From assembly GCA_964001325.1 (NCBI GenBank), contig CAXFCR010000082.1:1-11550 (forward strand): 11,550 nt of DNA. Direction: 5' to 3'. The position numbers and the translations under genes are program-made. The stretch is from an uncultured Gammaproteobacteria bacterium (GTDB lineage: Bacteria; Pseudomonadota; Gammaproteobacteria; Enterobacterales; UBA3532). A model generated the notes under the pieces. That model was not told the DNA's origin. It did no database searches and saw only the letters and a list, made by a program, of their open reading frames with translations. Positions 1-11,474 of the stretch are shown piece after piece (the stretch's first letter is position 1; each line of letters begins with the position of its first letter).

Positions 1-94
1 GGCTATATCTGTTCGCAAATGCGAGAAGTATCTTTTACTAAGCGCTGGCGTTATAGATTAGGTTTGGTTTTGTAAAACTGCTTTGATTGGTTGG

Positions 95-146
95 GCTTCG
101 ACAGGCTCAGCCAGCGGAGATCTACGTTCGCTGAGCTTGTCGAAGC
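95..146. other. Long hairpin: 17-bp inverted repeat (GCTTCGACAGGCTCAGC / GCTGAGCTTGTCGAAGC, one G-T wobble) with an 18-nt loop; no U-tract follows on either strand
   Basis: Arms at 95-111 and 130-146, paired base by base. Only position 104 versus 137 is non-Watson-Crick. The downstream sequence is C/T-rich, not U-rich. Confidence 0.5.
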
Positions 147-270
147 GCCACCTCTTCTCCGCCCTTCTCTGAAATTTCATCATATTCGACTACCTTATAT
201 ATGAGACAAGCGATTGAGGTAGCCTCGTTGCATCTCTGATCTCCTGAATAAAATTTCTTCAACAATCTAT

Positions 271-299
271 TGACATAAAATGTCTGTGCGCATAAAGTA
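271..299 (+). promoter_or_regulatory. Sigma70-like promoter: -35 TTGACA (271-276), 17-bp spacer, -10 TAAAGT (294-299); predicted TSS about 306-308
   Basis: Perfect consensus -35 hexamer. The -10 matches TATAAT at 4 of 6 positions including the key T1, A2 and T6. It lies about 40 bp upstream of the RBS (AAGGAAG 326-332) of the first gene. Confidence 0.5.
272..284. promoter_or_regulatory. Operator-like palindrome 1: GACAT-AAA-ATGTC, overlapping the -35 element
   Basis: Perfect 5-bp inverted arms with a 3-bp A/T centre. It shares the 12-bp core ACATAAWATGTC with the site at 303-317. Confidence 0.5.
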
Positions 300-302
300 A
301 TA

Positions 303-317
303 GACATAATATGTCTA
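303..317. promoter_or_regulatory. Operator-like palindrome 2: AGACAT-AAT-ATGTCT, overlapping the predicted TSS
   Basis: Perfect 6-bp inverted arms. Its centre is 32 bp (about 3 helical turns) from the centre of site 1. Confidence 0.5.
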
Positions 318-336: not shown

Positions 337-744
337 ATGAATTGCATAAAAGAGTTAACGCTAAAGTTGGCCGAAGCCAATTATCAAGGGCACCGCTTCA
401 ACTGTTTGCCCATTGAAGGCGAGCAGCCAGTGCTTCGAGTCGAAGTATCTGAGCTGGATGATTTGCCGATATTTGTGACTGCCAGCGAAACTCAGTTGTT
501 GTGCATTGTTTACTTGTTTAAAGACAGTGAAGTGGCTGAGGGCAGGCACGATGAGTTAAACCAGTATTTGCTTGAGCTTAATGTACCGATGCCACTTAGC
601 TCGTTTGCCAAGATTGACGAATATTATGTGGTGTTTGGGTCGATGGCGACGGATTCAACACTAGAGAATGTGATGCTAGAGCTTGTCACTCTGGCTCAGA
701 ACGCCAACAGCGCACTTCCGGCATTGGAAGAGTTTATTAGTTAA
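337..744 (+). CDS. yjfI: DUF2170 family protein (YjfI-like)
   Basis: 135-aa ORF with RBS AAGGAAG. The acidic profile and the segment DLPIFVTASETQLLCIVYLF resemble E. coli YjfI as I remember it, which sits immediately upstream of yjfJ. The same synteny is seen here. Family-level call only. Confidence 0.65.
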   Translation: MNCIKELTLKLAEANYQGHRFNCLPIEGEQPVLRVEVSELDDLPIFVTASETQLLCIVYLFKDSEVAEGRHDELNQYLLELNVPMPLSSFAKIDEYYVVFGSMATDSTLENVMLELVTLAQNANSALPALEEFIS

Positions 745-773
745 TACATATCAATAGGTTGTGGAGAAAAATC

Positions 774-1466
774 ATGGATATTTTCAAAAAGTTGTTTACT
801 GCGGTTCGTGGTGGAACGCGTGAAATCGGTGAAGCCATTGTTGATAGCCAATCGATGCGTATTTTCGAACAAGAAATTGAAGACGCAAAGAAAAGCCTGG
901 AAGAGGCAAAAGACGGACTAACTGAAGTCGTGGCGCGAAAAATGGCCAGCGAACGACAGTACAAAGCGTTGCAAACCGAAATTGCTGAAAACGAAGGTTA
1001 TGCAGCTAAGGCCTTGGATAAAGGCGATGAAACACTGGCATTGGAAGTCGCAGGTAAAATCGCAGAGCTGGAGGCGAATGCAGCAGAGATTCAAGGTCAT
1101 ATTAATGCCTATGAAACCCACGCTGAAACCCTGAAACAGCAAATCCATCGTGCTGAGCAGCAAATCGCAGAGCATGAGCGTGAATTGACAATGGTGAAAA
1201 CCCAGGAGTCGGTGCATAAAGCCACTGAAGCGGTGACGCAAAGTGTGACCATGAACCAGTCTTCTTTAGGTTCAGCTCGTGAGTCTTTGGAGCGGATCAA
1301 AAAGAAACAGCAATTGCGACAGGATAAAGTGGTTGCCGGTGAGCAGTTACATGCTGAGTTTTCAGGTAGTGAGCTTGATAAAAAGTTGACAGATGCCGGT
1401 ATCAAGGGAGAAGCTTCGAAAGCTGAAGATGTTCTGGCGAGGTTAAAAGCGAAACAAAATGGCTAA
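774..1466 (+). CDS. yjfJ: PspA/IM30 family protein (YjfJ-like; ESCRT-III superfamily)
   Basis: I chose the ATG at 774 (MDIFKKLFTAVRGG...), which is preceded by GGAGA at 760-764, over the tool's start at 759. About 231 aa, matching E. coli YjfJ (232 aa). Long amphipathic coiled-coil content (EQEIEDAKKSLEEAKDGL..., ELEANAAEIQGHINAYE...) is typical of PspA/Vipp1/YjfJ. Confidence 0.85.
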   Translation: MDIFKKLFTAVRGGTREIGEAIVDSQSMRIFEQEIEDAKKSLEEAKDGLTEVVARKMASERQYKALQTEIAENEGYAAKALDKGDETLALEVAGKIAELEANAAEIQGHINAYETHAETLKQQIHRAEQQIAEHERELTMVKTQESVHKATEAVTQSVTMNQSSLGSARESLERIKKKQQLRQDKVVAGEQLHAEFSGSELDKKLTDAGIKGEASKAEDVLARLKAKQNG

Positions 1467-1785
1467 AAAAGATCTGTGGCCCCAAGAAACGAAGGCCATC
1501 AAAGCAACACAGGTGGCTTTCGATATATCAACCGAGGCGCAACGCTGTATCAAACAGGAAGCGCTGGATAATGAAATATCACCATCGGATCAAATGCGGC
1601 GTATTCTGGGCCTGCCGGTTAAAAAGCCGGTCAGGCCTCGACTAACCATTTCGTTGTCGGTGGCAGATTATGAAATGCTCGGTGAAAGATACGGGGTTTC
1701 ACCGGCTGATCGCTTAGCGATAAAGGAAAAAGCGGCTCAGGTATTGATTGAGCATGTGAAGGCGAAACATGGAGAAGGACACTAG
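1459..1785 (+). CDS. Small protein with two tandem ribbon-helix-helix (CopG/Arc/MetJ-like) motifs; putative DNA-binding regulator
   Basis: The ATG overlaps the pspA-like stop (ATGGCTAA). Two repeats of the beta-strand plus helix-turn-helix pattern: VAFDISTEAQRCIKQEALDNEISPSDQMRRIL and RLTISLSVADYEMLGERYGVSPADRLAIKEKAAQVL. The second is a textbook RHH signature. Confidence 0.55.
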   Translation: MAKKDLWPQETKAIKATQVAFDISTEAQRCIKQEALDNEISPSDQMRRILGLPVKKPVRPRLTISLSVADYEMLGERYGVSPADRLAIKEKAAQVLIEHVKAKHGEGH

Positions 1786-1788
1786 GTT

Positions 1789-2355
1789 ATGAAAATGCTC
1801 AGTGTCGGTGCCAGGGTGGTGCTGGTGATACTGGGTTTGATGTGGCTCATTCATGGTGTCGCACTGGCAATTGACTATCCGGTTGTTCGTTATGGAATAT
1901 ACCCCCGCGAGATCCAAGGATTAACCGGTATTGTCACCGCGCCTGTTTTACATGCCAGCTGGAGCCATTTATTGGCCAATTCGCTGCCATTTTTGGGCTT
2001 AGGGATTTTGGTCTATAGCGTTCGGGCATTTTGGTCAGCTACGCTGTTTATTGTCTTGGTTGGAGGCCTTTTGGTCTGGATTTTTGGCCGCTCAGCCATC
2101 CATATTGGTGCCAGTGGTTTGATTATGGGATATTTCGGCTTTCTGTTGGCTTATGGATGGTATGCCAAGCAGTGGAAGCCGCTATTGGTGGCTTTTATAA
2201 CATTGGTATGTTTTGGCGGTTTGGCTTTTACCCTGCTCGACTTTCGCCAGCATATCAGCTTCGAAGGTCATATTTTCGGCTTTATCGCCGGGTTACTATT
2301 TGCACGGCTATGGTCCGGTCGGAGAGGTAAAAAAAATGGACGCGTTTCTCGTTAA
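1789..2355 (+). CDS. Rhomboid family intramembrane serine protease (minimal 6-TM core, 188 aa)
   Basis: RBS GGAGAAGGA at 1771-1779. Rhomboid motifs: TM2 H-x4-H-x3-N (HASWSHLLAN), catalytic GxSG in TM4 (HIGASGLIMGYFG), and catalytic His in the AHxxGxxxG context of TM6 (GHIFGFIAGLLFA). Confidence 0.8.
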   Translation: MKMLSVGARVVLVILGLMWLIHGVALAIDYPVVRYGIYPREIQGLTGIVTAPVLHASWSHLLANSLPFLGLGILVYSVRAFWSATLFIVLVGGLLVWIFGRSAIHIGASGLIMGYFGFLLAYGWYAKQWKPLLVAFITLVCFGGLAFTLLDFRQHISFEGHIFGFIAGLLFARLWSGRRGKKNGRVSR

Positions 2356-2992
2356 TATCAGTAGTTTTCCAACCATCATCTATACCATATTGGTCGGCAG
2401 TCTCATCGTTTATTGGATACTGCTAATCATGGGCATATTCGACTTCGATTTTCTGGAAGTTGATATTGATATGGATGCAGACGCCGATGTTGATGAAATG
2501 GGAAAAATGATGGGATTTTTGGCTACCTGCGGCTTAACAGGCGTCCCTATAATGATCGTCGCCACCTTGCTTATCATCATCGGCTGGCTGGTTAGCTACT
2601 ATGCTTCTCTATATGGCATGTTCTGGGTGCCTGATGGCGTTTTGCGCTATGCAGCCGGATGTGGAGTGATCGCTGTCAGCTTTGGGGTTTCCATTATTGT
2701 TACTGCTACACTTATTCGTCCGATGCGACCATTTTTTCGCCGTTTGAATGCATCACCATCCAATAAATCGATGGTGGGTATGCCATGCATTATTCGAACA
2801 ACTGAAGTGACGGATACGAAAGGTGAGGCCACTTGCTCATATAACGGCGCGAGCATGCTGATTAAGGTGCGAGCTGTTACAGAGCTTCCTCTAAAGCGTG
2901 GTGATAATGCTGTTATCGTGGAATACGACCCATCGAAGAGTCTTTACTTCGTAGTGACTGAACAAGAGTTTAAGCAAGGAGGGTTGAGCTAA
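2337..2992 (+). CDS. yqiJ: NfeD-like inner-membrane protein with C-terminal OB-fold (YqiJ/DUF1449-like)
   Basis: I preferred the ATG at 2337 (RBS GGAGAGG 2322-2328) over the tool's TTG start at 2213, which lies inside the rhomboid gene. N-terminal TM segments, an acidic insert (DFDFLEVDIDMDADADVDEMG), then a beta-rich C-terminus (MVGMPCIIRTTEVTDTKGEATCSYNGASMLIKVRAV...GDNAVIVEYDPSKSLYFVV) typical of the NfeD OB-fold. It sits immediately upstream of a flotillin gene, as in E. coli yqiJK. Confidence 0.75.
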
Positions 2993-3057
2993 CATAAATG
3001 TGTATCCTTCGTAAAAAATATACAGCCTCTATGGTTAATTAAAAACAGGAGATAAAT

Positions 3058-5088
3058 ATGGATGTAAGCATGATTATGCCAATTATTATTGGCATTGCTG
3101 TGGTGGTTGGTGGCCTATTTGTGCTGGCGCTATTATTTAATGCGTTTTACAAGAAGGTTCCTCAGGGGTTTGCGCTGATCAAGAATGATATGTCAGCCAA
3201 GCCCAAAGTCTATTTTACCGGGGCCTTTGTTGTGCCGGTTGTCCACAAAATGGAGATCATGAAGATCTCCCTTATCACATTAGAAGTTGACCGGCGTGGC
3301 AAAGACGGTTTGATCTGTAAAGACAACCTGCGCGCCGATATTACGGTGGCTTTCTATCTGCGAGTTAACGAAACACAAGAAGATGTGTTGAAGGTGGCGA
3401 AAGCCATTAGCGTCGACCGTGCTTCGGATCGAGCCGCTGTAAACGAACTGTTTAATGCTAAGTTCTCTGAAGCGCTCAAAACTGTGGGTAAGCAACTACA
3501 GTTTTTGGATCTGTTTGAAAATCGCATCATGTTCCGCGAAAAAATTGTCGAAGTTATCGGTGACGACTTAAATGGCTATGTGCTGGAAGATGTCGCGATT
3601 GATTATCTGGAGCAAACCCCCCGCAACCAGCTAGACCCCAATAATATCCTCGATTCCGAAGGTATTCGCCGCATTACCGAAATTACTGCTACCCAAAACG
3701 TAGAAACTAATCGTTTGGAGCGTGATGAAGAGCTGGCGATCAAAAAGAAAAATGTTGAAACCAAAGAAGCGACCCTGTCTTTAGAACGTCAACAATCGGA
3801 TGCTGAAGCGCGTCAAAAACGTGAAATTGAAACCATTCAAGCGCGAGAGCAGGCCGAGACCGATAAAGTACGTCAGGAAGAGTTACTTCGTTCTGAGCAG
3901 GCTCGTTTGCAAACCGAAGAGCAAGTGGCGGTTGGCGAAGAAAATAAAAACCGTCAAATTGAAGTGGCCGAGCAGAACCGCTTGCGTGCTATCGAAATTG
4001 AGAAAGAAAAGGTCATTAAAGCCCGCGAGCTGGAAATCGTGCATCGCCAGCGTGAAGTCGAGCTGGAAGAAATCAACAAAGAAAAGGCGCTGGAAGAAGA
4101 GCGCAAGATCATCGCTAACACTATTTCTGAGCGTATTGCGGTAGAGCGCAAGGTCGCTGAAGAAGAAGAGCGTATTAAAGAAGTGCGTGAAGTGTCTGAA
4201 GCGGATCGTGCTAAGCAAGTCCAAATAATGGATGCCGAAGCCAAAGCTCAGGAAGAGTTGATTCGTCAGGTGAAAGCGGCAGAAGCTGACGAGCAACGGG
4301 CAGTATTCAAGGCGAAAGAAATCAACTTAATGGCTCAGGCTGATCTCGAAGCGGCTGCCAAGCAAGCTGAAGCAATGAAGAAGAAAGCCGAAGGTGATCA
4401 GGCTGAACAGGCTGCACCTGGTCTTGCTAAAGCCAAAGTACTTGAAATCACTGCGGCAGCGCGAGAGAAAGAAGGCTTGGCCGAAGCGAAAATCATTGAG
4501 GCCAAAGCCGGAGCCAAAGAGAAAGATGGCTTAGCTGAAGCTAAAGTGCTCGAAGAGAAAATGCGCGCTGAGGCGATTGGCGTGAAAGAGAAAGGCCTAT
4601 CTGAGGCAGCGACTATTCAGGCTAAGGGTGATTCAGAAGCCCATGCTGAAAAAGCCAAAGGTCTGGCAGTGGCAGATGCGAAAGCGGCACAAGGTAAAGC
4701 CGAAGCAGAAGTGTTGTTGGCCAAAGCGAAAGCTGAAGCAGATGGCTTGATGGAGAAATTCTCCGCCATGAACAACATGAGCCCAGATTCACGCGAATTC
4801 GAAGAGTTCCGCATGAAGCTCGAATATGGCTTGCAGGAAATGCTGGCGTCGCTGGATGCCAATAAAGACGTTGCTAAAGAGCAGGCTGCGGTTATTGCGG
4901 CGGCCCTTGAAAACTCCAATATCGATATTGTTGGGGGGCAAGGTGAATATTTCGACAAGCTATCCAAAGGCCTGGGTCTGGGTAACGCCTTGAATGGCTT
5001 CCTGGAGAAAAGCCCAATTGCTGATATTTTGGTCAATCGTTTCCTTGGTGGTGACGACAAAGCCAAAGACAGCAAAGAAGTTAACTAA
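3058..5088 (+). CDS. yqiK: SPFH/Band-7 flotillin-like protein (YqiK-like) with extended Ala/Glu/Lys-rich coiled-coil repeat tail
   Basis: RBS AGGAGA at 3045-3050. N-terminal TM helix, then an SPFH domain (PQGFALIKNDMSAKPKVYFTGAFVVPVVHKMEIMKISLITLEVD...DNLRADITVAFYLRV). The tail has flotillin-type EA repeats (EKEGLAEAKIIEAKAGAK / EKDGLAEAKVLEEK / EKGLSEAATIQAKG). 676 aa. Confidence 0.9.
   Translation: MDVSMIMPIIIGIAVVVGGLFVLALLFNAFYKKVPQGFALIKNDMSAKPKVYFTGAFVVPVVHKMEIMKISLITLEVDRRGKDGLICKDNLRADITVAFYLRVNETQEDVLKVAKAISVDRASDRAAVNELFNAKFSEALKTVGKQLQFLDLFENRIMFREKIVEVIGDDLNGYVLEDVAIDYLEQTPRNQLDPNNILDSEGIRRITEITATQNVETNRLERDEELAIKKKNVETKEATLSLERQQSDAEARQKREIETIQAREQAETDKVRQEELLRSEQARLQTEEQVAVGEENKNRQIEVAEQNRLRAIEIEKEKVIKARELEIVHRQREVELEEINKEKALEEERKIIANTISERIAVERKVAEEEERIKEVREVSEADRAKQVQIMDAEAKAQEELIRQVKAAEADEQRAVFKAKEINLMAQADLEAAAKQAEAMKKKAEGDQAEQAAPGLAKAKVLEITAAAREKEGLAEAKIIEAKAGAKEKDGLAEAKVLEEKMRAEAIGVKEKGLSEAATIQAKGDSEAHAEKAKGLAVADAKAAQGKAEAEVLLAKAKAEADGLMEKFSAMNNMSPDSREFEEFRMKLEYGLQEMLASLDANKDVAKEQAAVIAAALENSNIDIVGGQGEYFDKLSKGLGLGNALNGFLEKSPIADILVNRFLGGDDKAKDSKEVN
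4440..4700 (+). repeat. In-frame tandem roughly 20-codon repeats encoding flotillin EA/coiled-coil repeats
   Basis: Nucleotide-level periodicity: gagaaagaaggcttggccgaagcgaaaatcattgag / gagaaagatggcttagctgaagctaaagtgctcgaa / gagaaaggcctatctgaggcagcgactattcag. Confidence 0.4.
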
Positions 5089-5105
5089 CCTAACAGTCAG
5101 GCATC

Positions 5106-5143
5106 AGGGTTTAACCGTGTTTCGGTTAAACCCTTCCCCCTTT
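5106..5143 (+). terminator. Hairpin AGGGTTTAACCG-tgttt-CGGTTAAACCCT followed by TCCCCCTTTC. Weak or partial intrinsic terminator, or attenuator, between the flotillin gene and the giant ORF
   Basis: Perfect 12-bp stem with a 5-nt loop at 5106-5134. The downstream tract is pyrimidine-rich with only a short T run, so termination efficiency is probably partial. Confidence 0.4.
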
Positions 5144-5189
5144 CACCCACTTTCGTATCCCCAACGCTTCAATCATCGAGGGAAGACAG

Positions 5190-8100
5190 ATGACGGATTC
5201 TGAACAAAAGAACAACGCGGTTGAACAGGCAGTTGCAGACGGCGGCGCCTATGAAGTGATTCGCCAGCGCCTGACTAGTCAGGGTAAGGCCCTGCAAGAC
5301 GCGGCAAAGTCGGTCAATCAGGCACGTATCGATGAATTTGGTTCGACCGAGATGTCGGTTCTTGGACGGCTGCGATTGCGTACAGAGCATAATTGTTTAG
5401 CGCGAGATTTGGTGATTGTTGGGGATATTGTGCTCCTCGGTTACAACGTCTTTATGGGCCTGAAAAAGGAAACGCGGGTCGAAGACGTATTTGCTTTATA
5501 TCGAATCCAGCAAAATGATGATCAGTTTGAAGCTGAAGCCATCGATTATCAGCAAAGCTTTCTCGCTGATCAGCGCTTTGTTAGCGACTTTGACGAGTTG
5601 TATGCCTACTACAAAGATACCCAGCTGGTGCAACTGGTGGTGCGTGATGGCAAGCTGCTGGCATCATTTCAAATTGGCCAGCGCCTGACGGATATTCGGG
5701 TTTTTCGCTGGTCGCTAGCGCCAGATGGTAAGGTGCTTGAATATATAGATAATCGCGGCGAGCGTGATATTGCCTTGCCGAACAAGTTTGACTTTGAATG
5801 GGTGGCCTCCAAGCGTGAAGACGTTATTGATGGCCGCAATCCTCACGTAAATATTCTGGATACCTTGTTTGTTGATACCCTGCGCGGTGATCTAACCGTT
5901 AAAGTTGAAGACAACACCAATACTGGTCAAGGCATCTACTCTGACCCCGTTGATGATAGCAGTCAGTCTTTAGATGATGCTGAGATCCACTATGCCTCCC
6001 TTGGTGATCTTATCCTGCTGCGTATTAAGCCCTATCAAGAGCAAGATTACCGATATCTGGTGTTCAACCGCAACAACGAAAGCGTCACGCGAATTGATGC
6101 CATTGGTGAGTCTTGTGTGCAGCTACCAGAGGATCACGGCATTATCTTCCCTGGCGGTATGTATCTGGCCACCGGTGAATACAAAACCTTTGATGACGAT
6201 GTTTCAAACCTCAAATACAAGCGTGTTTTTCGTTCGCCGAATGGCGAAGACGTGCTGTACATGTTCTATCGTGAAGAAGATGGCTTAGGTGCATTATACG
6301 GCTACAACCTAATTGAAAAAAGTCTGCAAAACCCATTATTCGCCCATGGCTATGGTTTCTATGAAGACGGCCGCTTGATTATTTTTTACGCCGAAACCGA
6401 GGCCACGCGGGTGCATCCGATCCAGATCTGGAAAACGCCCTACTTTTCTGATGAATTCGCTGCAGCACAACCAGAGCGCCAGTCATTCTACGGCAAAATT
6501 GGCAATGCCGAGTTGGTACGCGGCATCTCAGAACTATATAGCTTGTCGCGCTCGGTTCTAGAAGCGAATGTTTCATCCAGTCATTACAACGATTTGGCCA
6601 AACGCTGCCAGAAACTGTTTGATGCCTACCATTGGCTCACCAGCAGTCAGCTCGATGGCATTGATGATCTGGTCAAGCAAATTGGTGAAACCGCTGAAAT
6701 GGTGCTCGACGAATACGAAAAAGTCGAAAGCATTCGAGCTCAGTCGAATAAAGCTTTGCAAGAGGCGGTAGCCGAGCAGCAAGAAATCCAGCGCCACATC
6801 GATCCCGACGCTTGGAGCAGTCCTAATGACTTTGTTCAAGGTTTGGATCGGTTGCGCTCGCAGCGCGGTCACTTGCTGACTATCCGTGAATACCGCTATA
6901 TGGATATCGAGCGCATCGATGCGCTTGAGCGGCAGGTGATTGAATGGGAAGAGGAGCTGAATCAGGCCACGGTCGACTTTTTGGCCAGCGATGGGGCGTT
7001 GAAGCAGTATTATGATGACTTAGCCCATGTAGCCAAAGAAGCCCCGTCCCAACAAACGGTTGCTGAGTTAAAACCGCTGGTCGATATTCTGGAAAATATG
7101 GCAGCTGGTCTGGATTTGTTGTCGGAGCTGATGGCCACGCTTAAGGTGCCGGATGCGACATTGCAAACCCGCATTGTCGATAATATTTCTGAGCTGTATG
7201 CCAAGCTTAATCAGCAAAAAGCCAAGCTGGAGCATCAACGAAAATCGATGGGATCGGCTGAAGCCGTCGCTCAGTTTGGTGCTCAATTTAAGCTCTTTGG
7301 TCAAAGCATTAACAATGCGCTGAGCCTGGCATCGACACCGGATAAATGCGATGAGCAACTGTCACGCCTATTAGTGCAATTGGAAGAACTGGAAGGTCAG
7401 TTCAGTGATTACGACGAATTTTTGGGCGATATTTTAGCCAAGCGCGATGAGGTGTATGAAACCTTTGAAGCGCATAAACAAAAGCTGCTCGAACAGCGCC
7501 AACGCAAGTGTCAAAACCTGTTTGATGCTGCTGAGCGTATTCTGAACAGTATCGAGCGGCGCTCACAAAAATTTACAGACCAGGATGAACTTAACAGCTT
7601 CTTTGCCTCAGATGGCTTAGTGCAAAAAATCCGCTCGATGAGCAAGGAGCTGCGAGAGCTGGATGATAGTGTTAAAGCGGATGACCTGGAATCGCGGTTA
7701 AAATCGGCTAAGGACAACGCCGTTCGTAGTTTGCGTGATAAGTCGGACATCTATGAAGATGGCGGCAATATCATTAAGCTGGGGCCAAGGCACAAGTTCA
7801 GCGTCAATACCCAAGCGCTGGATCTGACCATCGTGCCACGTTCCGATGGGCTATACAGCCACCTTACCGGCACCGATTATTTTGAATACTTGGACGATGC
7901 TGATCTCAATGCCTTAAAGCCCTATTGGGATATGAGTATTCCGTCGGAAAGCCCGGAGGTGTATCGGGCTGAATATTTGGCGTTTAAACTGCTGATGGCG
8001 GCGCGAGATGGTGAAGGTCGCACCCTCACTGAGCTGGCCACACTGTGCAGCGACGAGCAAAAGCTCGCCGCAGCCGTGCGCGACTTTGCCACCCCGCGTT

Positions 8101-10502
8101 ATCGTGAAGGCTATGAAAAAGGCATTCATGATCATGATGCTGCGCGAATTTTGGTGCCGCTTGTTTCATCCTATCAACAGGCAGGCCCATTGCGCTATGA
8201 TCCAACAAGTCGCGCACTGGCGATCCTGTTCTGGTTGCAATACATGGAAAGCGACGCGACTGCCGGTTGGGAGGCGCGGGCGCGTGATGGCTTGAAACTG
8301 GCTGAGCTATTTAATAGCCGTAAAGCGCTAGAGCGGTTGCAGGATGAGGTCTATAAAGCATTGGCAGCCTTTGCTGAGGAAGAGTCGATCCCCGTTCATA
8401 CCACACAGCTTCGTCAAGCTTCGGTCTATTTAGCGTGGGAGCTGGGGCAAGACATCGTCTCGTTTGCGACGACCAAGTATGCATCCCAGCTTGCTGAGCA
8501 GTTTGAAATGCAACTCCGCTCAGCCAGCGGTTGGGACGGCTTTGAAAGTGCATTGCAAAACCTGGCCAGTCAACCCGGCAAAGCCTGGGCATTGGCGCAA
8601 AACTGGCTGGCGGCCTTTGTAGAAAATACCAACAACGATAGCGGCCATTTTATTGATGAAGCGGTTGCCATTGTTATTGGTGATAATCGACTTAGTCGAA
8701 CCGTCGTTAATGTTGATCTGCAATTGGATATTGAGCAACTCCTTGGCAGCCATCCTCGCCTTGAAGATCAATGTTTACGACTGACGCTGGATGATTTCTT
8801 ATTACGGTTGAATAAGCATATCGAGGATGTCGAGCCAGGCTACTATCGCTTTCAAGATGTGCGGCAATTGGTTATCGAGCGAGAGCGCGATGCATTAAAG
8901 CTCGAAGCCTTTAAGCCACGCCCGCTGTCGTCATTTGTGCGCAATAAGCTGATCAACGACGTCTATTTACCCATCATTGGTGACAATCTGGCCAAGCAAA
9001 TGGGGACGGTGGGCGATAGCAAGCGAACCGATTTGATGGGGCTGTTGCTGATGATCTCCCCGCCGGGCTACGGTAAAACCACTTTGATGGAATATGTAGC
9101 CAGCCGCTTGGGCTTGATCTTTATGAAGGTGAATTGCCCTGCTCTTGGTCATGATGTGACGTCGGTCGATCCGGCGAATGCGCCTAACAGCACAGCTCGG
9201 CAGGAGCTGGAAAAGCTCAACTTGGCGTTGGAGATGGGCAATAATGTGATGCTGTATTTAGATGATATTCAGCACACCCATCCTGAGTTTTTGCAGAAGT
9301 TTATTTCGCTGTGTGATGGTACGCGTCGTATTGAAGGCGTGTGGCGTGGCGAAACCAAAACTTACGACATGCGTGGCAAAAAATTCTGCGTGGTGATGGC
9401 CGGTAATCCATACACCGAGTCAGGCGAAACCTTCAAGATCCCAGACATGCTGGCCAACCGTGCCGATATCTATAACCTCGGTGATGTATTGGGCGGTAAA
9501 GAAGAGGTATTTGCGCTGAGTTATATTGAAAACTCGCTGACATCGAACAATGTGCTGGCACCGCTTGGCACGCGCGATATGAAAGACGTGTATAAGTTTG
9601 TCGCCTTGGCTCAGGGCGAGCAAGTGGCAAATAGCGATTTCAGCCATAGCTATTCGGGTGCCGAGATCAACGAGATCAAAACCGTACTGCAAAAAATGTT
9701 TGCCGTGCGCGATGTGATCCTCAAGGTCAATCAGCAATACATTGCATCGAGTGCCCAAGCAGATGACTACCGCACTGAGCCACCCTTCAAGCTTCAAGGC
9801 TCGTATCGGAACATGAACAAGATGGCCGAAAAGCTTTCCAGCGTGATGACAGACGATGAGTTGATGCGGGTAATTGCCGATCACTATCAGGGCGAATCGC
9901 AGTTGTTGACGGCAGGTGCCGAAGAAAACCTGCTCAAGCTGGCTGAATTGCGCGGCAACATGACCGATGAAGAAAAAGCTCGCTGGGACAGCATCAAAAC
10001 CAACTTCCAACGCAACAAGGCGATGGGCGGCAGTGATGCTGATGTTGGCACACGCGTCGTCGGGCAGTTGCGTGACATTGCTAGCGGGCTTGGTGAGCTG
10101 ACCAAGGCCTCGCTGCTTCAGTCTAAACACGCTTCAAGTGATGATGGCTCGGCTCAGTGGGCACAAATGATTCAACCCTTGCTGGAAAGTCAGCAGCAGA
10201 TCAGCGCGCTTGGAGAGAAAATCAACAAAGCAGTCGGAGCGTTGCAGTCTATGGAAACGCCGACACCACATATTGAAGTCATCAACCAGCCAGTTCCAGG
10301 CGTCGATCAAATTTTGCGAACCTTGTCAGATACGGTACAAAACAGCATTCAACCGTTGCTAAGAGTGATGGATGGCAAGCTCGATCTGGATCTAAAAACC
10401 CATACCAAAATGCATGAGATTGATAGCGCGCTCACCGGCCTGCGTAACATCGTTAATGAAGAGAAAAAAGCGCGTAAAGAGCGTGAGGATAAAGAGGCAT
10501 GA
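5190..10502 (+). CDS. Giant (1770 aa) uncharacterised protein with one C-terminal AAA+ ATPase module (MoxR/AAA_5-like)
   Basis: RBS GAGGGAAG at 5176-5183. Walker A GYGKTT (nt 9066-9083, aa about 1293-1298). Walker B LYLDDIQH (aa about 1355-1359, a DD variant). Sensor-1 Asn in VVMAGNPYT (N about 1406). Arg in LANRADIY (R about 1424), resembling the MoxR/dynein AAA_5 pattern. No second P-loop anywhere. The N-terminal third (about aa 60-470) is beta-rich. About aa 470-1250 is helical/coiled-coil (many E/Q/K/L-rich heptad-like stretches). There is a C-terminal helical region of about 300 aa. No TM segments. Confidence 0.85.
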   Translation: MTDSEQKNNAVEQAVADGGAYEVIRQRLTSQGKALQDAAKSVNQARIDEFGSTEMSVLGRLRLRTEHNCLARDLVIVGDIVLLGYNVFMGLKKETRVEDVFALYRIQQNDDQFEAEAIDYQQSFLADQRFVSDFDELYAYYKDTQLVQLVVRDGKLLASFQIGQRLTDIRVFRWSLAPDGKVLEYIDNRGERDIALPNKFDFEWVASKREDVIDGRNPHVNILDTLFVDTLRGDLTVKVEDNTNTGQGIYSDPVDDSSQSLDDAEIHYASLGDLILLRIKPYQEQDYRYLVFNRNNESVTRIDAIGESCVQLPEDHGIIFPGGMYLATGEYKTFDDDVSNLKYKRVFRSPNGEDVLYMFYREEDGLGALYGYNLIEKSLQNPLFAHGYGFYEDGRLIIFYAETEATRVHPIQIWKTPYFSDEFAAAQPERQSFYGKIGNAELVRGISELYSLSRSVLEANVSSSHYNDLAKRCQKLFDAYHWLTSSQLDGIDDLVKQIGETAEMVLDEYEKVESIRAQSNKALQEAVAEQQEIQRHIDPDAWSSPNDFVQGLDRLRSQRGHLLTIREYRYMDIERIDALERQVIEWEEELNQATVDFLASDGALKQYYDDLAHVAKEAPSQQTVAELKPLVDILENMAAGLDLLSELMATLKVPDATLQTRIVDNISELYAKLNQQKAKLEHQRKSMGSAEAVAQFGAQFKLFGQSINNALSLASTPDKCDEQLSRLLVQLEELEGQFSDYDEFLGDILAKRDEVYETFEAHKQKLLEQRQRKCQNLFDAAERILNSIERRSQKFTDQDELNSFFASDGLVQKIRSMSKELRELDDSVKADDLESRLKSAKDNAVRSLRDKSDIYEDGGNIIKLGPRHKFSVNTQALDLTIVPRSDGLYSHLTGTDYFEYLDDADLNALKPYWDMSIPSESPEVYRAEYLAFKLLMAARDGEGRTLTELATLCSDEQKLAAAVRDFATPRYREGYEKGIHDHDAARILVPLVSSYQQAGPLRYDPTSRALAILFWLQYMESDATAGWEARARDGLKLAELFNSRKALERLQDEVYKALAAFAEEESIPVHTTQLRQASVYLAWELGQDIVSFATTKYASQLAEQFEMQLRSASGWDGFESALQNLASQPGKAWALAQNWLAAFVENTNNDSGHFIDEAVAIVIGDNRLSRTVVNVDLQLDIEQLLGSHPRLEDQCLRLTLDDFLLRLNKHIEDVEPGYYRFQDVRQLVIERERDALKLEAFKPRPLSSFVRNKLINDVYLPIIGDNLAKQMGTVGDSKRTDLMGLLLMISPPGYGKTTLMEYVASRLGLIFMKVNCPALGHDVTSVDPANAPNSTARQELEKLNLALEMGNNVMLYLDDIQHTHPEFLQKFISLCDGTRRIEGVWRGETKTYDMRGKKFCVVMAGNPYTESGETFKIPDMLANRADIYNLGDVLGGKEEVFALSYIENSLTSNNVLAPLGTRDMKDVYKFVALAQGEQVANSDFSHSYSGAEINEIKTVLQKMFAVRDVILKVNQQYIASSAQADDYRTEPPFKLQGSYRNMNKMAEKLSSVMTDDELMRVIADHYQGESQLLTAGAEENLLKLAELRGNMTDEEKARWDSIKTNFQRNKAMGGSDADVGTRVVGQLRDIASGLGELTKASLLQSKHASSDDGSAQWAQMIQPLLESQQQISALGEKINKAVGALQSMETPTPHIEVINQPVPGVDQILRTLSDTVQNSIQPLLRVMDGKLDLDLKTHTKMHEIDSALTGLRNIVNEEKKARKEREDKEA

Positions 10503-10834
10503 TCGACAGGGAGCACTCTTCTGAAATGACGCATTATGCCGAACGACATGCCAACAAAACCAACCTTGTTATCCACCTTATAGCGGTGCCAGTGTTTATA
10601 CTGGCACACATAGGTCTGGTTTCATCATTACTCAGCAAACATTGGCTGGGTGTCGGAGTGAACTTGATGATGATCTTGCTGAGTTTGGCGATGCAGGGTA
10701 AAGGACATAAGCTGGAGCATACCCCGCCAGATCCCTTTGCCAGCCCTATAGACTTCGTAAAACGTATTTATCGTGAGCAGTTTTGGGTATTTCCAAGGTT
10801 TATGCTGGCGACAAAATCTAATGAGAATGAATAA
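10499..10834 (+). CDS. Small membrane protein, DUF962/Mpo1-like (YGL010w family)
   Basis: The ATG overlaps the giant ORF stop (ATGA). The N-terminus THYAERHANKTNLVIHLIAVPVF matches the DUF962 Y-x-x-x-H-x-x-N-x-x-x-H-x-x-x-x-P His/Asn motif as I recall it, followed by two hydrophobic helices. Confidence 0.5.
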   Translation: MIDREHSSEMTHYAERHANKTNLVIHLIAVPVFILAHIGLVSSLLSKHWLGVGVNLMMILLSLAMQGKGHKLEHTPPDPFASPIDFVKRIYREQFWVFPRFMLATKSNENE

Positions 10835-10847
10835 CTGAAAAGCTTCC

Positions 10848-11474
10848 CTAGTGAGCCATCTCAAATAGCTGTCGGATAATATTGACTGGCGTCGCATAGG
10901 ACTGCCCTGCGTTGACCAGACCATACTCCGTTTGATGGGCAACGTAAGAGCGAAGTATGCCGCTGAGTTCCCATTGGTTTTCGTAGCAATGGAGCAAAGC
11001 GCCACCAGAACTACCTGCATCGATGTGGGCGCTGGTGTGCAATCCTTTTAAGCGCTGGCGAATAAAACGGCCATGGGACACTTTTTGTGAGTGAGTTCCA
11101 GGATAGCCTATGGCAATAACTGGTTCGTTGTCGCGTAGTGGTTTGGCACTTAGTGGGATGGGTGGCGTGTTCAGCGTTTCAGCGCGTAGTAAGGCAATGT
11201 CTGCTCCCTGATGGGCCGCTACGAGCGATGCGCTGACATGCTGTCCTTGAATATCAACAATGACCTCACCATCGGTCGGCAAGCCGTGAAACACGGTCAC
11301 AATGCTATCAGACTCCACCACCACACCACTAAAGCTGCTATTGCCAACCTGGATGCGCACGATCGATGGGTAGTAGTCAACGATGCTGCAACCGGATGAA
11401 TTCGATGCTGCTGGAGTGGTGAATAGTAATCCGCCAATCAGGCTGAAAATAGTCCCTAATAACGGTGTACGCAC
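10848..11474 (-). CDS. Secreted trypsin-fold (S1/DegP-like, no PDZ) serine protease
   Basis: GTG start with AGG 7-9 nt upstream. The N-terminus has a signal-peptide shape (MRTPLLGTIFSLIGGLLFTTPAAS). Catalytic triad candidates: His (TVFHGLP), Asp (GADIALL), Ser in GSSGGAL (GDSGG-like). Confidence 0.8.
   Translation of the reverse strand: MRTPLLGTIFSLIGGLLFTTPAASNSSGCSIVDYYPSIVRIQVGNSSFSGVVVESDSIVTVFHGLPTDGEVIVDIQGQHVSASLVAAHQGADIALLRAETLNTPPIPLSAKPLRDNEPVIAIGYPGTHSQKVSHGRFIRQRLKGLHTSAHIDAGSSGGALLHCYENQWELSGILRSYVAHQTEYGLVNAGQSYATPVNIIRQLFEMAH

Follow-up and report, generated by a model that had tools for sequence, protein, structure and literature searches.

Two described sets of operons stand closest to the subject of this work, a run of eight genes (g1 to g8) at positions 337 to 10,834 of the plus strand of an 11,550-nucleotide stretch of DNA from an uncultured gammaproteobacterium; the whole stretch is called the window here. 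Ravi et al. 2024 (mSystems; preprint 2020; PMC11237479) described a conserved operon that joins a CesT/Tir (YjfI)-PspA pair to YqiJ/YuaF, a band-7/flotillin protein and an AAA+ ATPase. In that account, some operons of the class also carry PLD, and abbreviated flotillin-YqiJ-ATPase versions without PspA are more widespread. The second set is the biofilm-associated cluster bacABCDEF of Pseudomonas aeruginosa (PA3732-PA3727 / PA14_16140-16200). As judged from gene content and order, the window probably carries the Kangiellaceae version of such a Bac-type PspA-flotillin-AAA+ operon, which would serve in membrane maintenance and in the quality control of membrane proteins or lipids.

Reverse-transcription PCR (RT-PCR) gave a product at all five junctions of bacABCDEF, and in a bacA mutant all Bac proteins were increased 6- to 13-fold; BacA, which has a CesT-like crystal structure, exerts negative control in P. 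aeruginosa (PMC10948618). Mutation of bacA or bacB impairs the formation of biofilm, the secretion of rhamnolipid and virulence (PMC10948618, PMC2587700). The locus of the sister species P. paraeruginosa (L014 in our survey) reads YjfI-PspA-YqiJ-flotillin-giant ATPase-PLD, and it follows from this order that BacC is YqiJ-like, BacD a flotillin, BacE the giant ATPase and BacF the PLD protein. The window has the same five core genes in the same order, likewise tightly packed and co-directional. However, the sixth bac gene encodes a PLD (HKD) hydrolase, whereas the window contains no PLD gene, the optional BacF component, and instead has a rhomboid gene before yqiJ and an Mpo1-like gene after that of the ATPase. 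In addition, the bac operon has no ribbon-helix-helix (RHH) gene and no GACAT-N3-ATGTC palindrome, and its authors propose a sigma-54 promoter, while the promoter of the window is sigma-70-like.

In Escherichia coli, yjfIJ(KLMC) and yqiJK encode four proteins homologous to g1, g2, g5 and g6. As an initial annotation of the window had stated, they occupy separate loci; in MG1655 the positions are 3.19 Mb for yqiJK and 4.41 Mb for yjfIJKLMC, 1.2 Mb apart. These loci lack genes for a giant ATPase, a rhomboid or an RHH protein, and yjfIJ is a PspA operon of the polyamine-ligase type. Bacillus subtilis, with pspA-ydjGHI and yuaFGI (FloT/NfeD2), resembles the window in that PspA is functionally coupled to an SPFH protein and a flotillin is paired with a protein of the NfeD2 type (PMC8581546, PMC9239133, PMC2636767). 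On the other hand, it uses another SPFH subfamily (YdjI is cytosolic) and has no giant ATPase, DUF2170 protein or rhomboid. Hubs in which an SPFH cage houses a protease include HflK/C with FtsH, archaeal stomatin with STOPP (NfeD1b) and mitochondrial SLP2 with PARL and YME1L, where PARL is a rhomboid. The analogy is functional: genes for a scaffold, a membrane protease and an AAA+ machine come together in the window as such parts do in these hubs, but the AAA+ protein of the window lacks a protease domain and does not belong to the FtsH type.

The domain architectures and gene linkage of the window match the class in PMC11237479 exactly. The initial annotation had held that the arrangement was not described as a unit. 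This does not hold for the core, since its order is published there and is homologous to bacABCDEF, and the order is common among relatives (below). The operon opens no new category of system. In its main text, the same paper mentions a rhomboid 0 times, describes no operator, and reports an RHH factor only for spermine-synthase PspA operons, whereas the RHH gene of the window sits in a flotillin/ATPase operon. The new elements are a putative regulon defined by the RHH protein and its operator (new to our knowledge), this particular order of eight genes, and the findings that a rhomboid is associated with the system and that its accessory slot varies.

Conservation of the operon across relatives

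To collect relatives, GTDB was scanned with a pattern, a single genome standing for each species. At least 600 stretches matched; 583 of them were confirmed to be related to the giant ATPase, and of these the best 80 were retained as loci. All six frames of the loci were searched both with the proteins of the window and with profiles built anew from the initial hits. Genes for flotillin and YqiJ were directly upstream of the giant ATPase gene in 71/71 evaluable loci, an arrangement far beyond chance. In comparison, the YjfI-PspA pair was upstream and co-directional in 46 of 69 loci, divergent in three and absent from 20, and this last group agrees with the published abbreviated versions. In these loci the ATPase is thus an obligate partner of the YqiJ/flotillin lineage, and PspA is a facultative module. 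The initial annotation had proposed a search for giant AAA+ homologues beside yqiK-like and yjfJ-like genes, and the neighborhood is indeed conserved. It had also regarded the giant ATPase as one of the insertions in a unit of two joined gene pairs; the ATPase is instead the invariant partner and the PspA pair is optional.

Since its linkage to YqiJ and flotillin is invariant, the ATPase probably has the SPFH scaffold, not PspA, as its primary client. One alternative is that the giant ATPase is a bacterial counterpart of Vps4 that disassembles or turns over PspA polymers, with flotillin only as a platform, and this could coexist with our reading of the operon. In its favor, 49/69 loci link PspA to the ATPase, archaea and eukaryotes control ESCRT-III through AAA+ proteins, and PspF regulates PspA. 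Reviews point out that bacteria have no Vps4-like partner (PMC7619361). Nevertheless, we consider this alternative quite unlikely, since PspA is missing from 20 of 69 loci while YqiJ and flotillin are missing from none of the 71 evaluable ones. In Pfam searches g7 also showed neither the MIT domain nor the Vps4 C-terminal oligomerisation domain (Vps4_C) of that clade; it has DUF3686, a coiled coil and AAA_5/AAA. In our reading of its motifs, the sensor region (N-P-Y-T-E-S-G...P-D-M-L-A-N-R, of the pattern N-P-x-x-E-x-G...P-x-x-L-x-N-R) appears to resemble MoxR/CbbQ/NorQ and not the classical clade.

The Kangiellaceae relatives (two Pleionea-type, one Aliikangiella and one metagenome-assembled genome, MAG) all have the order rhomboid-YqiJ-flotillin-giant ATPase. 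In the two Pleionea-type loci this order is extended to STK-PP2C-FHA-rhomboid-YqiJ-flotillin-giant ATPase, and YjfI-PspA-x-g3 belongs to a spermine-synthase operon of convergent orientation, which in Pleionea is 4 kb distant. The genes for the Ser/Thr kinase (STK), PP2C phosphatase and FHA protein directly precede the rhomboid gene (L005 3904-6640, L088 1913-4649) and suggest that phospho-signalling control replaces the PspA/RHH module there. Aliikangiella coralliicola and another Kangiellaceae MAG have PspA-rhomboid-YqiJ-flotillin-giant ATPase-PHA_gran_rgn, where a PHA-granule-associated-region protein of 93 residues holds the position of g8 (L089 13293-13574, L090 13416-13697). In a metagenomic locus (L093), YjfI-PspA-g3-rhomboid is divergent from YqiJ-flotillin-giant ATPase; the rhomboid of this locus is fused to a Zn-ribbon domain. 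In its order the operon of the window therefore resembles modules, separate in relatives, that were fused head to tail; it does not look like a unique invention. The initial annotation was borne out in that one tightly coupled unit here combines the PspA and YqiJ/flotillin modules with a rhomboid and with a giant AAA+ protein.

A tandem ribbon-helix-helix protein and its putative operator

The product of g3 contains the beta-alpha-alpha fold twice in one chain, in agreement with its first description as a tandem-RHH protein. Its homologues form a family of 1931 proteins that has no Pfam model, and three further independent look-ups each placed a g3 homologue directly after a YjfI-PspA pair. 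Other single-chain double-RHH proteins are TraY of the F plasmid, AvtR of a lipothrixvirus and an engineered single-chain Arc. g3 has no sequence similarity to these, and its context, which we take to be operon autoregulation, differs from the relaxosome and virus contexts of TraY and AvtR.

The promoter region of the window contains two copies of a 13-bp palindrome, GACAT-N3-ATGTC (Table 1). Among 85 loci (1.69 Mb searched), exact copies of this palindrome were present in 9/10 loci that carry g3 and in 0/75 that do not. In the g3 loci they were always within the promoter region of the YjfI/PspA genes. The tenth g3 locus (L078) has degenerate half-sites only, and the palindrome was also present in 6/6 further loci collected later. 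Outside the window, the sites are in L005, L025, L066, L067, L077 and L088-L093. Not only in the window but also in Thiodiazotropha, Hahella, a Cellvibrionaceae MAG and Methylomonas, the -35 hexamer TTGACA has the left half-site embedded in it.

In Aliikangiella, two operators precede PspA-rhomboid-YqiJ-flotillin-giant ATPase (L089) and g3 is encoded elsewhere in the genome: a second PspA operon (L091) carries g3 and an operator pair of its own. In the loci examined, the palindrome occurs only where there is a g3 gene in the same locus or genome. We infer from this co-occurrence that g3 is a sequence-specific repressor of a small PspA/flotillin regulon and binds GACATAWTATGTC.

A sigma-54 (-24/-12) promoter upstream of g1 was also considered. 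In a scan across loci its best match, 8/11, equalled the background mode, and candidates including AGG-N10-TTGCA at 226-241 were rejected because their scores were indistinguishable from background.

Another reading is that the window holds two juxtaposed but functionally independent units, one an RHH-regulated YjfI-PspA-RHH stress unit and the other rhomboid-YqiJ-flotillin-ATPase(-Mpo1). It is consistent with this that the g3 regulator always accompanies the pair, that the Pleionea pair is in the separate spermine-synthase operon, that the pair is divergent in L025, L067, L077, L092 and L093, and that no pair is nearby in the 20 loci without it. However, in the window the gap between g3 and the rhomboid gene is only 3 nt with no promoter-like site, and the pair is most often co-directional with YqiJ-flotillin-giant ATPase. 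In P. aeruginosa, moreover, RT-PCR crossed every junction and the Bac proteins rose together (PMC10948618). Finally, the g3 operators of Aliikangiella and the Kangiellaceae MAG directly precede the PspA-rhomboid-YqiJ-flotillin-giant ATPase order, which argues for one regulon. Two independent units are therefore decidedly improbable.

Gene products, junctions and flanking genes

The eight consecutive, co-directional open reading frames were confirmed by reading of the frames and junctions. An independent gene caller gave the same eight models on four public contigs with an identical copy of the locus (from a set of TARA and ENA marine metagenomes and from a Kangiellaceae MAG, GCA_002707725.1). 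The tight packing claimed by the initial annotation thus stands, and every gene identity that it gave was verified by Pfam, BLASTP, hhalign or structure modelling. A detail had to be corrected, as g4 and g5 overlap by 20 nt (2336-2355) and not 19. The remaining junctions are a 29-nt gap between g1 and g2 (whose start is ATG 774 and not the TTG 759 that opens the reading frame), an 8-nt overlap of g2 and g3 (ATGGCTAA), a 3-nt gap between g3 and g4, gaps of 65 nt before and 101 nt after g6, and an ATGA overlap of g7 and g8. By the overlaps g3 is coupled to pspA in translation, the rhomboid gene to yqiJ and g8 to the ATPase gene.

Table 1. Coordinates of genes, protein domains and putative control elements in the window
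Feature	Position	Strand	Detail
Long inverted repeat	89..152		32-nt arms, 81% complementary, no spacer; between upstream 147-aa gene and operon promoter; repeat search
Sigma-70-like promoter	270..298	+	TTGACA / 17-nt spacer / TAAAGT; 10/12, best in whole window; 39 nt before g1 ATG
Operator O1 (putative)	272..284		GACATAAAATGTC; overlaps -35 hexamer
Operator O2 (putative)	303..315		GACATAATATGTC; directly after -10 hexamer
g1, YjfI/BacA-like DUF2170 protein	337..744	+	135 aa; Pfam E 2.9e-37
g2, YjfJ/BacB-like PspA/IM30, ESCRT-III superfamily	774..1466	+	230 aa; Pfam PspA_IM30 E 1.7e-42
g3, tandem ribbon-helix-helix protein	1459..1785	+	108 aa; start overlaps pspA stop; putative autorepressor
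g4, compact rhomboid intramembrane serine protease	1789..2355	+	188 aa; Pfam Rhomboid E 8e-19
g5, YqiJ/BacC-like membrane protein, NfeD2 type	2336..2992	+	218 aa; overlaps g4 by 20 nt
g6, YqiK/BacD-like flotillin (SPFH2)	3058..5088	+	676 aa; N-terminal transmembrane anchor, SPFH domain, long Ala/Glu-rich coiled coil
Perfect hairpin	5108..5134	+	11-12 bp, GGGTTTAACCG-TGTTT-CGGTTAAACCC; g6-g7 gap, no U-tract
g7, giant BacE-like ATPase	5190..10502	+	1770 aa; Pfam DUF3686 E 2.8e-197, DUF7902, AAA_5/AAA
DUF3686 N-domain of g7	5292..6632 (aa 35-481)	+	Pfam
Coiled-coil/DUF7902 of g7	6996..7247 (aa 603-686)	+	Pfam; helical middle region follows
Single AAA+ module of g7, AAA_5	9045..9416 (aa 1286-1409)	+	Pfam
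g8, Mpo1-like membrane protein	10499..10834	+	111 aa; Pfam PF06127 E 6.4e-6; ATGA-coupled to g7

The promoter scan of the window found no promoter-like site in the internal intergenic gaps. All terminator-like matches were within coding regions or on the minus strand. Together with the overlaps and short gaps, the one strong promoter and, indirectly, the RT-PCR data from P. aeruginosa, the lack of internal promoter-like sites is consistent with g1 to g8 forming a single operon. The region of the g6-g7 hairpin folds at -26.8 kcal/mol (z = -2.47), and the hairpin may be an attenuator, processing or stabilising element that sets the ratio of flotillin to ATPase, that is, of scaffold to enzyme. 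The inverted repeat upstream of the promoter is possibly a transcript boundary, such as a terminator without a U-tract, or else an element like a repetitive extragenic palindrome (REP); the end of the upstream gene beside it was inferred from gene calls on the native contig (L001).

Pfam recognises five of the eight proteins (g1, g2, g4, g7 and g8). The window proteins g3, g5 and g6 had no Pfam hit and were identified by BLASTP, hhalign and structure modelling instead. A Kyte-Doolittle scan placed transmembrane segments in g4, g5, g6 and g8 only. The initial annotation had described every component as associated with the membrane or remodelling it. As a theme this is reasonable, but it does not extend to g3, a DNA-binding RHH regulator, to g1, a soluble chaperone, or to g7, in which no transmembrane segment was found.

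Identity of g1 to E. coli YjfI is 29% (BLASTP 9e-14) and to the BacA equivalent of P. paraeruginosa 32% (6e-12). With the NCBIfam equivalog model for BacA it scores 49.6 against a cutoff of 300, and we therefore regard it as a homologue of BacA and not an equivalog. The CesT/Tir fold of soluble chaperones of this type was assigned in PMC10948618 and PMC11237479. Its partner g2 shares 35% identity with E. coli YjfJ (E 7e-32).

A profile of 26 sequences of the g5 family matched E. coli YqiJ with an hhalign probability of 91.5% (E 8.4e-7), and g5 has three transmembrane regions. The Pfam model YqiJ_N is weak on this family and matches 4/26 members; the equation of YqiJ with NfeD2 comes from PMC2636767. 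The flotillin g6, with its transmembrane segment at residues 1-34, matched E. coli YqiK at 27% identity across 461 residues (BLASTP E 8e-41) and the BacD equivalent of P. paraeruginosa at 62% over its full length. NCBIfam FloT recognised g6 weakly (2e-4) and Pfam Band_7 did not match it; only 2/26 members of its family are matched. Sequence and profile searches of the PDB with g5, g6 and g7 were all empty. Domain-based surveys would thus undercount the BacD/PaFlo3-like flotillin subfamily, which escapes both the Band_7 and the PDB profiles.

The rhomboid g4 has four to five hydrophobic segments by the Kyte-Doolittle scan and shows the HxxxxHxxxN motif of TM2, the GxSG serine and the TM6 histidine. 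Its catalytic residues (H55, H60, N64, G107-A-S109-G110 and H161) do not vary among 18 homologues linked to the system. These proteins are ~185 residues long, share 33-40% identity with g4 and all keep H55/H60/N64, G-x-S109-G and H161. By its residues, g4 is thus catalytically intact. The subfamily has at least 4205 proteins. A member is present in 19/80 loci, in 18/76 immediately after the ATPase gene (often with an ATGA overlap) and in one elsewhere. In Kangiellaceae, on the other hand, the rhomboid gene precedes yqiJ instead of following that of the ATPase.

The giant ATPase g7 shares ~57% identity with its L014 counterpart and has more than 4136 homologues; its DUF3686 N-domain occurs in 728 clusters at 50% identity, and our literature search found no paper on DUF3686. 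Walker A (GYGKT, 1293-1297), Walker B (LYLDD, 1355-1359), the sensor-1 residue N1406 and R1424 are invariant in 18 homologues. A model of the AAA+ module, made with AlphaFold2 (AF2) from a shallow alignment of seven sequences, gave only generic AAA+ matches in a fold search, RuvB and MCM folds among them, and is of low confidence. The inherited names of this family, "DNA repair ATPase/protein" at NCBI and "ATPase involved in DNA repair" for DUF3686 in Pfam, imply a DNA repair system. Such a role might draw on these fold matches and on a below-threshold match to the RuvB_N P-loop (E 0.0085). However, AAA+ proteins in general give P-loop matches of this kind, domains for nuclease or helicase activity or for DNA binding are absent, and the invariant neighbors are membrane proteins. 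A repair function is hardly credible.

The last gene, g8, has a transmembrane segment at residues 20-47. Its match to PF06127, which we take to be the family formerly named DUF962, is marginal (26.7 bits where the gathering cutoff is 24, over positions 5-78 of the 95 in the profile). Across the 85 loci it occurs only in the four contigs of the organism of the window and is thus a lineage-specific tail gene. The slot after the ATPase gene is otherwise filled by a rhomboid, PLD, Peptidase_M50B (L066), an MscK-like channel or a helical protein, or is empty. PLD was found in L014, L018, L019, L022, L039, L076, L080, L095 and L096; the last two (373-11805) are other eight-gene operons with the order YjfI-PspA-YqiJ-flotillin-giant ATPase-rhomboid-PLD-Zn-ribbon protein. 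In three Comamonas loci (L081, L083 and L084, ~15506-18997) a mechanosensitive channel of the MscK/MscS family, ~1150 residues long, directly follows the giant ATPase and provides another link to membrane tension. In Xanthomonadales (L046, L048, L050, L053, L059, L065, L072, L074 and L082) the slot holds a helical protein of 210-260 residues with a conserved W-x-G-R-L-L-G-R-D and no Pfam hit. The idea that the sixth position always encodes a membrane or lipid enzyme was ruled out by this soluble protein and by the many loci without an adjacent co-directional gene.

A slot this variable invites another explanation, namely that the operon acts in anti-phage defense or abortive infection, with the large ATPase as a sensor and with exchangeable effectors (rhomboid, PLD or M50 protease) that attack membranes or lipids. 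The initial annotation had likewise mentioned a phage-response island. The slot is effector-like, toxin-antitoxin genes are found upstream on the native contig and PspA is historically phage-induced. In contrast, a scan of all nine proteins against PADLOC-DB 2.0 returned only coiled-coil (LmuB/JetC) and P-loop noise, at E 1e-7 or weaker and over partial regions. The five core genes encode structural membrane proteins in stable chromosomal contexts across many genera, other loci are flanked by housekeeping genes such as polA and iPGM, and the phenotypes known from P. aeruginosa are biofilm, rhamnolipid and virulence. A defense role is thus very improbable.

On the native contig, the upstream flank (L001 929-4886) carries Gp49/HTH (HigBA-like) and TacA/GNAT toxin-antitoxin pairs, an NrtR-type NUDIX regulator, an ADP-ribosylglycohydrolase and a 147-aa protein without assigned identity, and it looks variable and island-like. 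Downstream, a convergent gene on the minus strand (10848-11474) encodes a trypsin-like protease (Trypsin_2, DegS/HtrA-related) with an N-terminal hydrophobic, signal-like segment. This gene ends 13 nt past g8, which leaves no space for a terminator; it is present in all four contigs of the organism and absent from the other loci.

A proposed route to membrane quality control

By analogy with other SPFH systems, a mechanism that couples cage, protease and ATPase may be proposed for the operon. The RHH protein would bind GACATAWTATGTC and block the -35/-10 region, so that the operon is autorepressed until an envelope signal induces it, possibly through partner-switching with PspA or YjfI as in the case of PspA and PspF. 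PspA, held by its CesT-like chaperone, would polymerise on damaged inner membrane and seal or stabilise it, with YjfI/BacA serving as PspA chaperone or as negative regulator. Flotillin and the NfeD-like YqiJ would form a cage or microdomain of the SPFH kind at the cytoplasmic side of the membrane. Like the SPFH cages that hold FtsH, STOPP or PARL, this could corral the rhomboid and its substrates. The recurrent rhomboid, or the M50B protease in one locus, would fill the role of cage protease, and YqiJ or the N-out/C-in anchor of flotillin are candidate substrates. The giant MoxR-like AAA+ protein would spend ATP to assemble, remodel or empty the scaffold, on which its beta-propeller and coiled-coil arm may dock. 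The gene beside the ATPase would encode an exchangeable accessory, such as a rhomboid, PLD, M50B protease or, here, a putative Mpo1-like lipid enzyme. Overall, the operon would serve in maintenance during envelope stress and in quality control of membrane proteins or lipids.

A more specific version can be put forward. Flotillin/YqiJ, the rhomboid and the giant AAA+ protein would form a proteolytic and remodelling hub like SLP2-PARL-YME1L or HflKC-FtsH, with PspA co-regulated by the tandem-RHH/operator regulon. The ATPase would then be the long-missing, ATP-driven remodeller of bacterial PspA or SPFH assemblies, and the rhomboid would process YqiJ or the N-out/C-in anchor of flotillin. In this full form we consider it speculative and rather unlikely.

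Several observations weigh against the assignment to a Bac-type operon for membrane maintenance and quality control. The 80 loci are the best of 583, those closest to the query, and their frequencies are biased toward gamma- and beta-proteobacteria. The modules are separable, the pair being divergent or distant in Pleionea, Hahella, Marinobacter and the Cellvibrionaceae MAG. The rhomboid subfamily is not exclusive to this system; Teredinibacter turnerae, for example, has a stand-alone member. Walker B of g7 is DD (D1358-D1359) and not DE, and with a predicted local distance difference test (pLDDT) score of 55.6 the AAA+ model is too poor to place its clade. Transcripts could start or end internally, in the gaps of 65 nt and 101 nt or at the hairpin (5108-5134). 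Finally, deletion of PaFlo3, the flotillin BacD, reduced biofilm by only ~20% with no other phenotype (PMC13086221), which makes the physiological role a subtle or conditional one.

Bac-type systems are nevertheless widespread, with more than 4000 homologues of the giant ATPase, and in P. aeruginosa they are linked to biofilm and virulence. That YqiJ and flotillin, and not PspA, are the invariant partners of the ATPase redirects the search for its substrate. The recurrence of a rhomboid with intact catalytic residues suggests that an SPFH microdomain houses regulated intramembrane proteolysis. Lastly, the RHH protein and GACATAWTATGTC, as a putative repressor/operator pair, would define a regulon that could serve to find the inducing signal.

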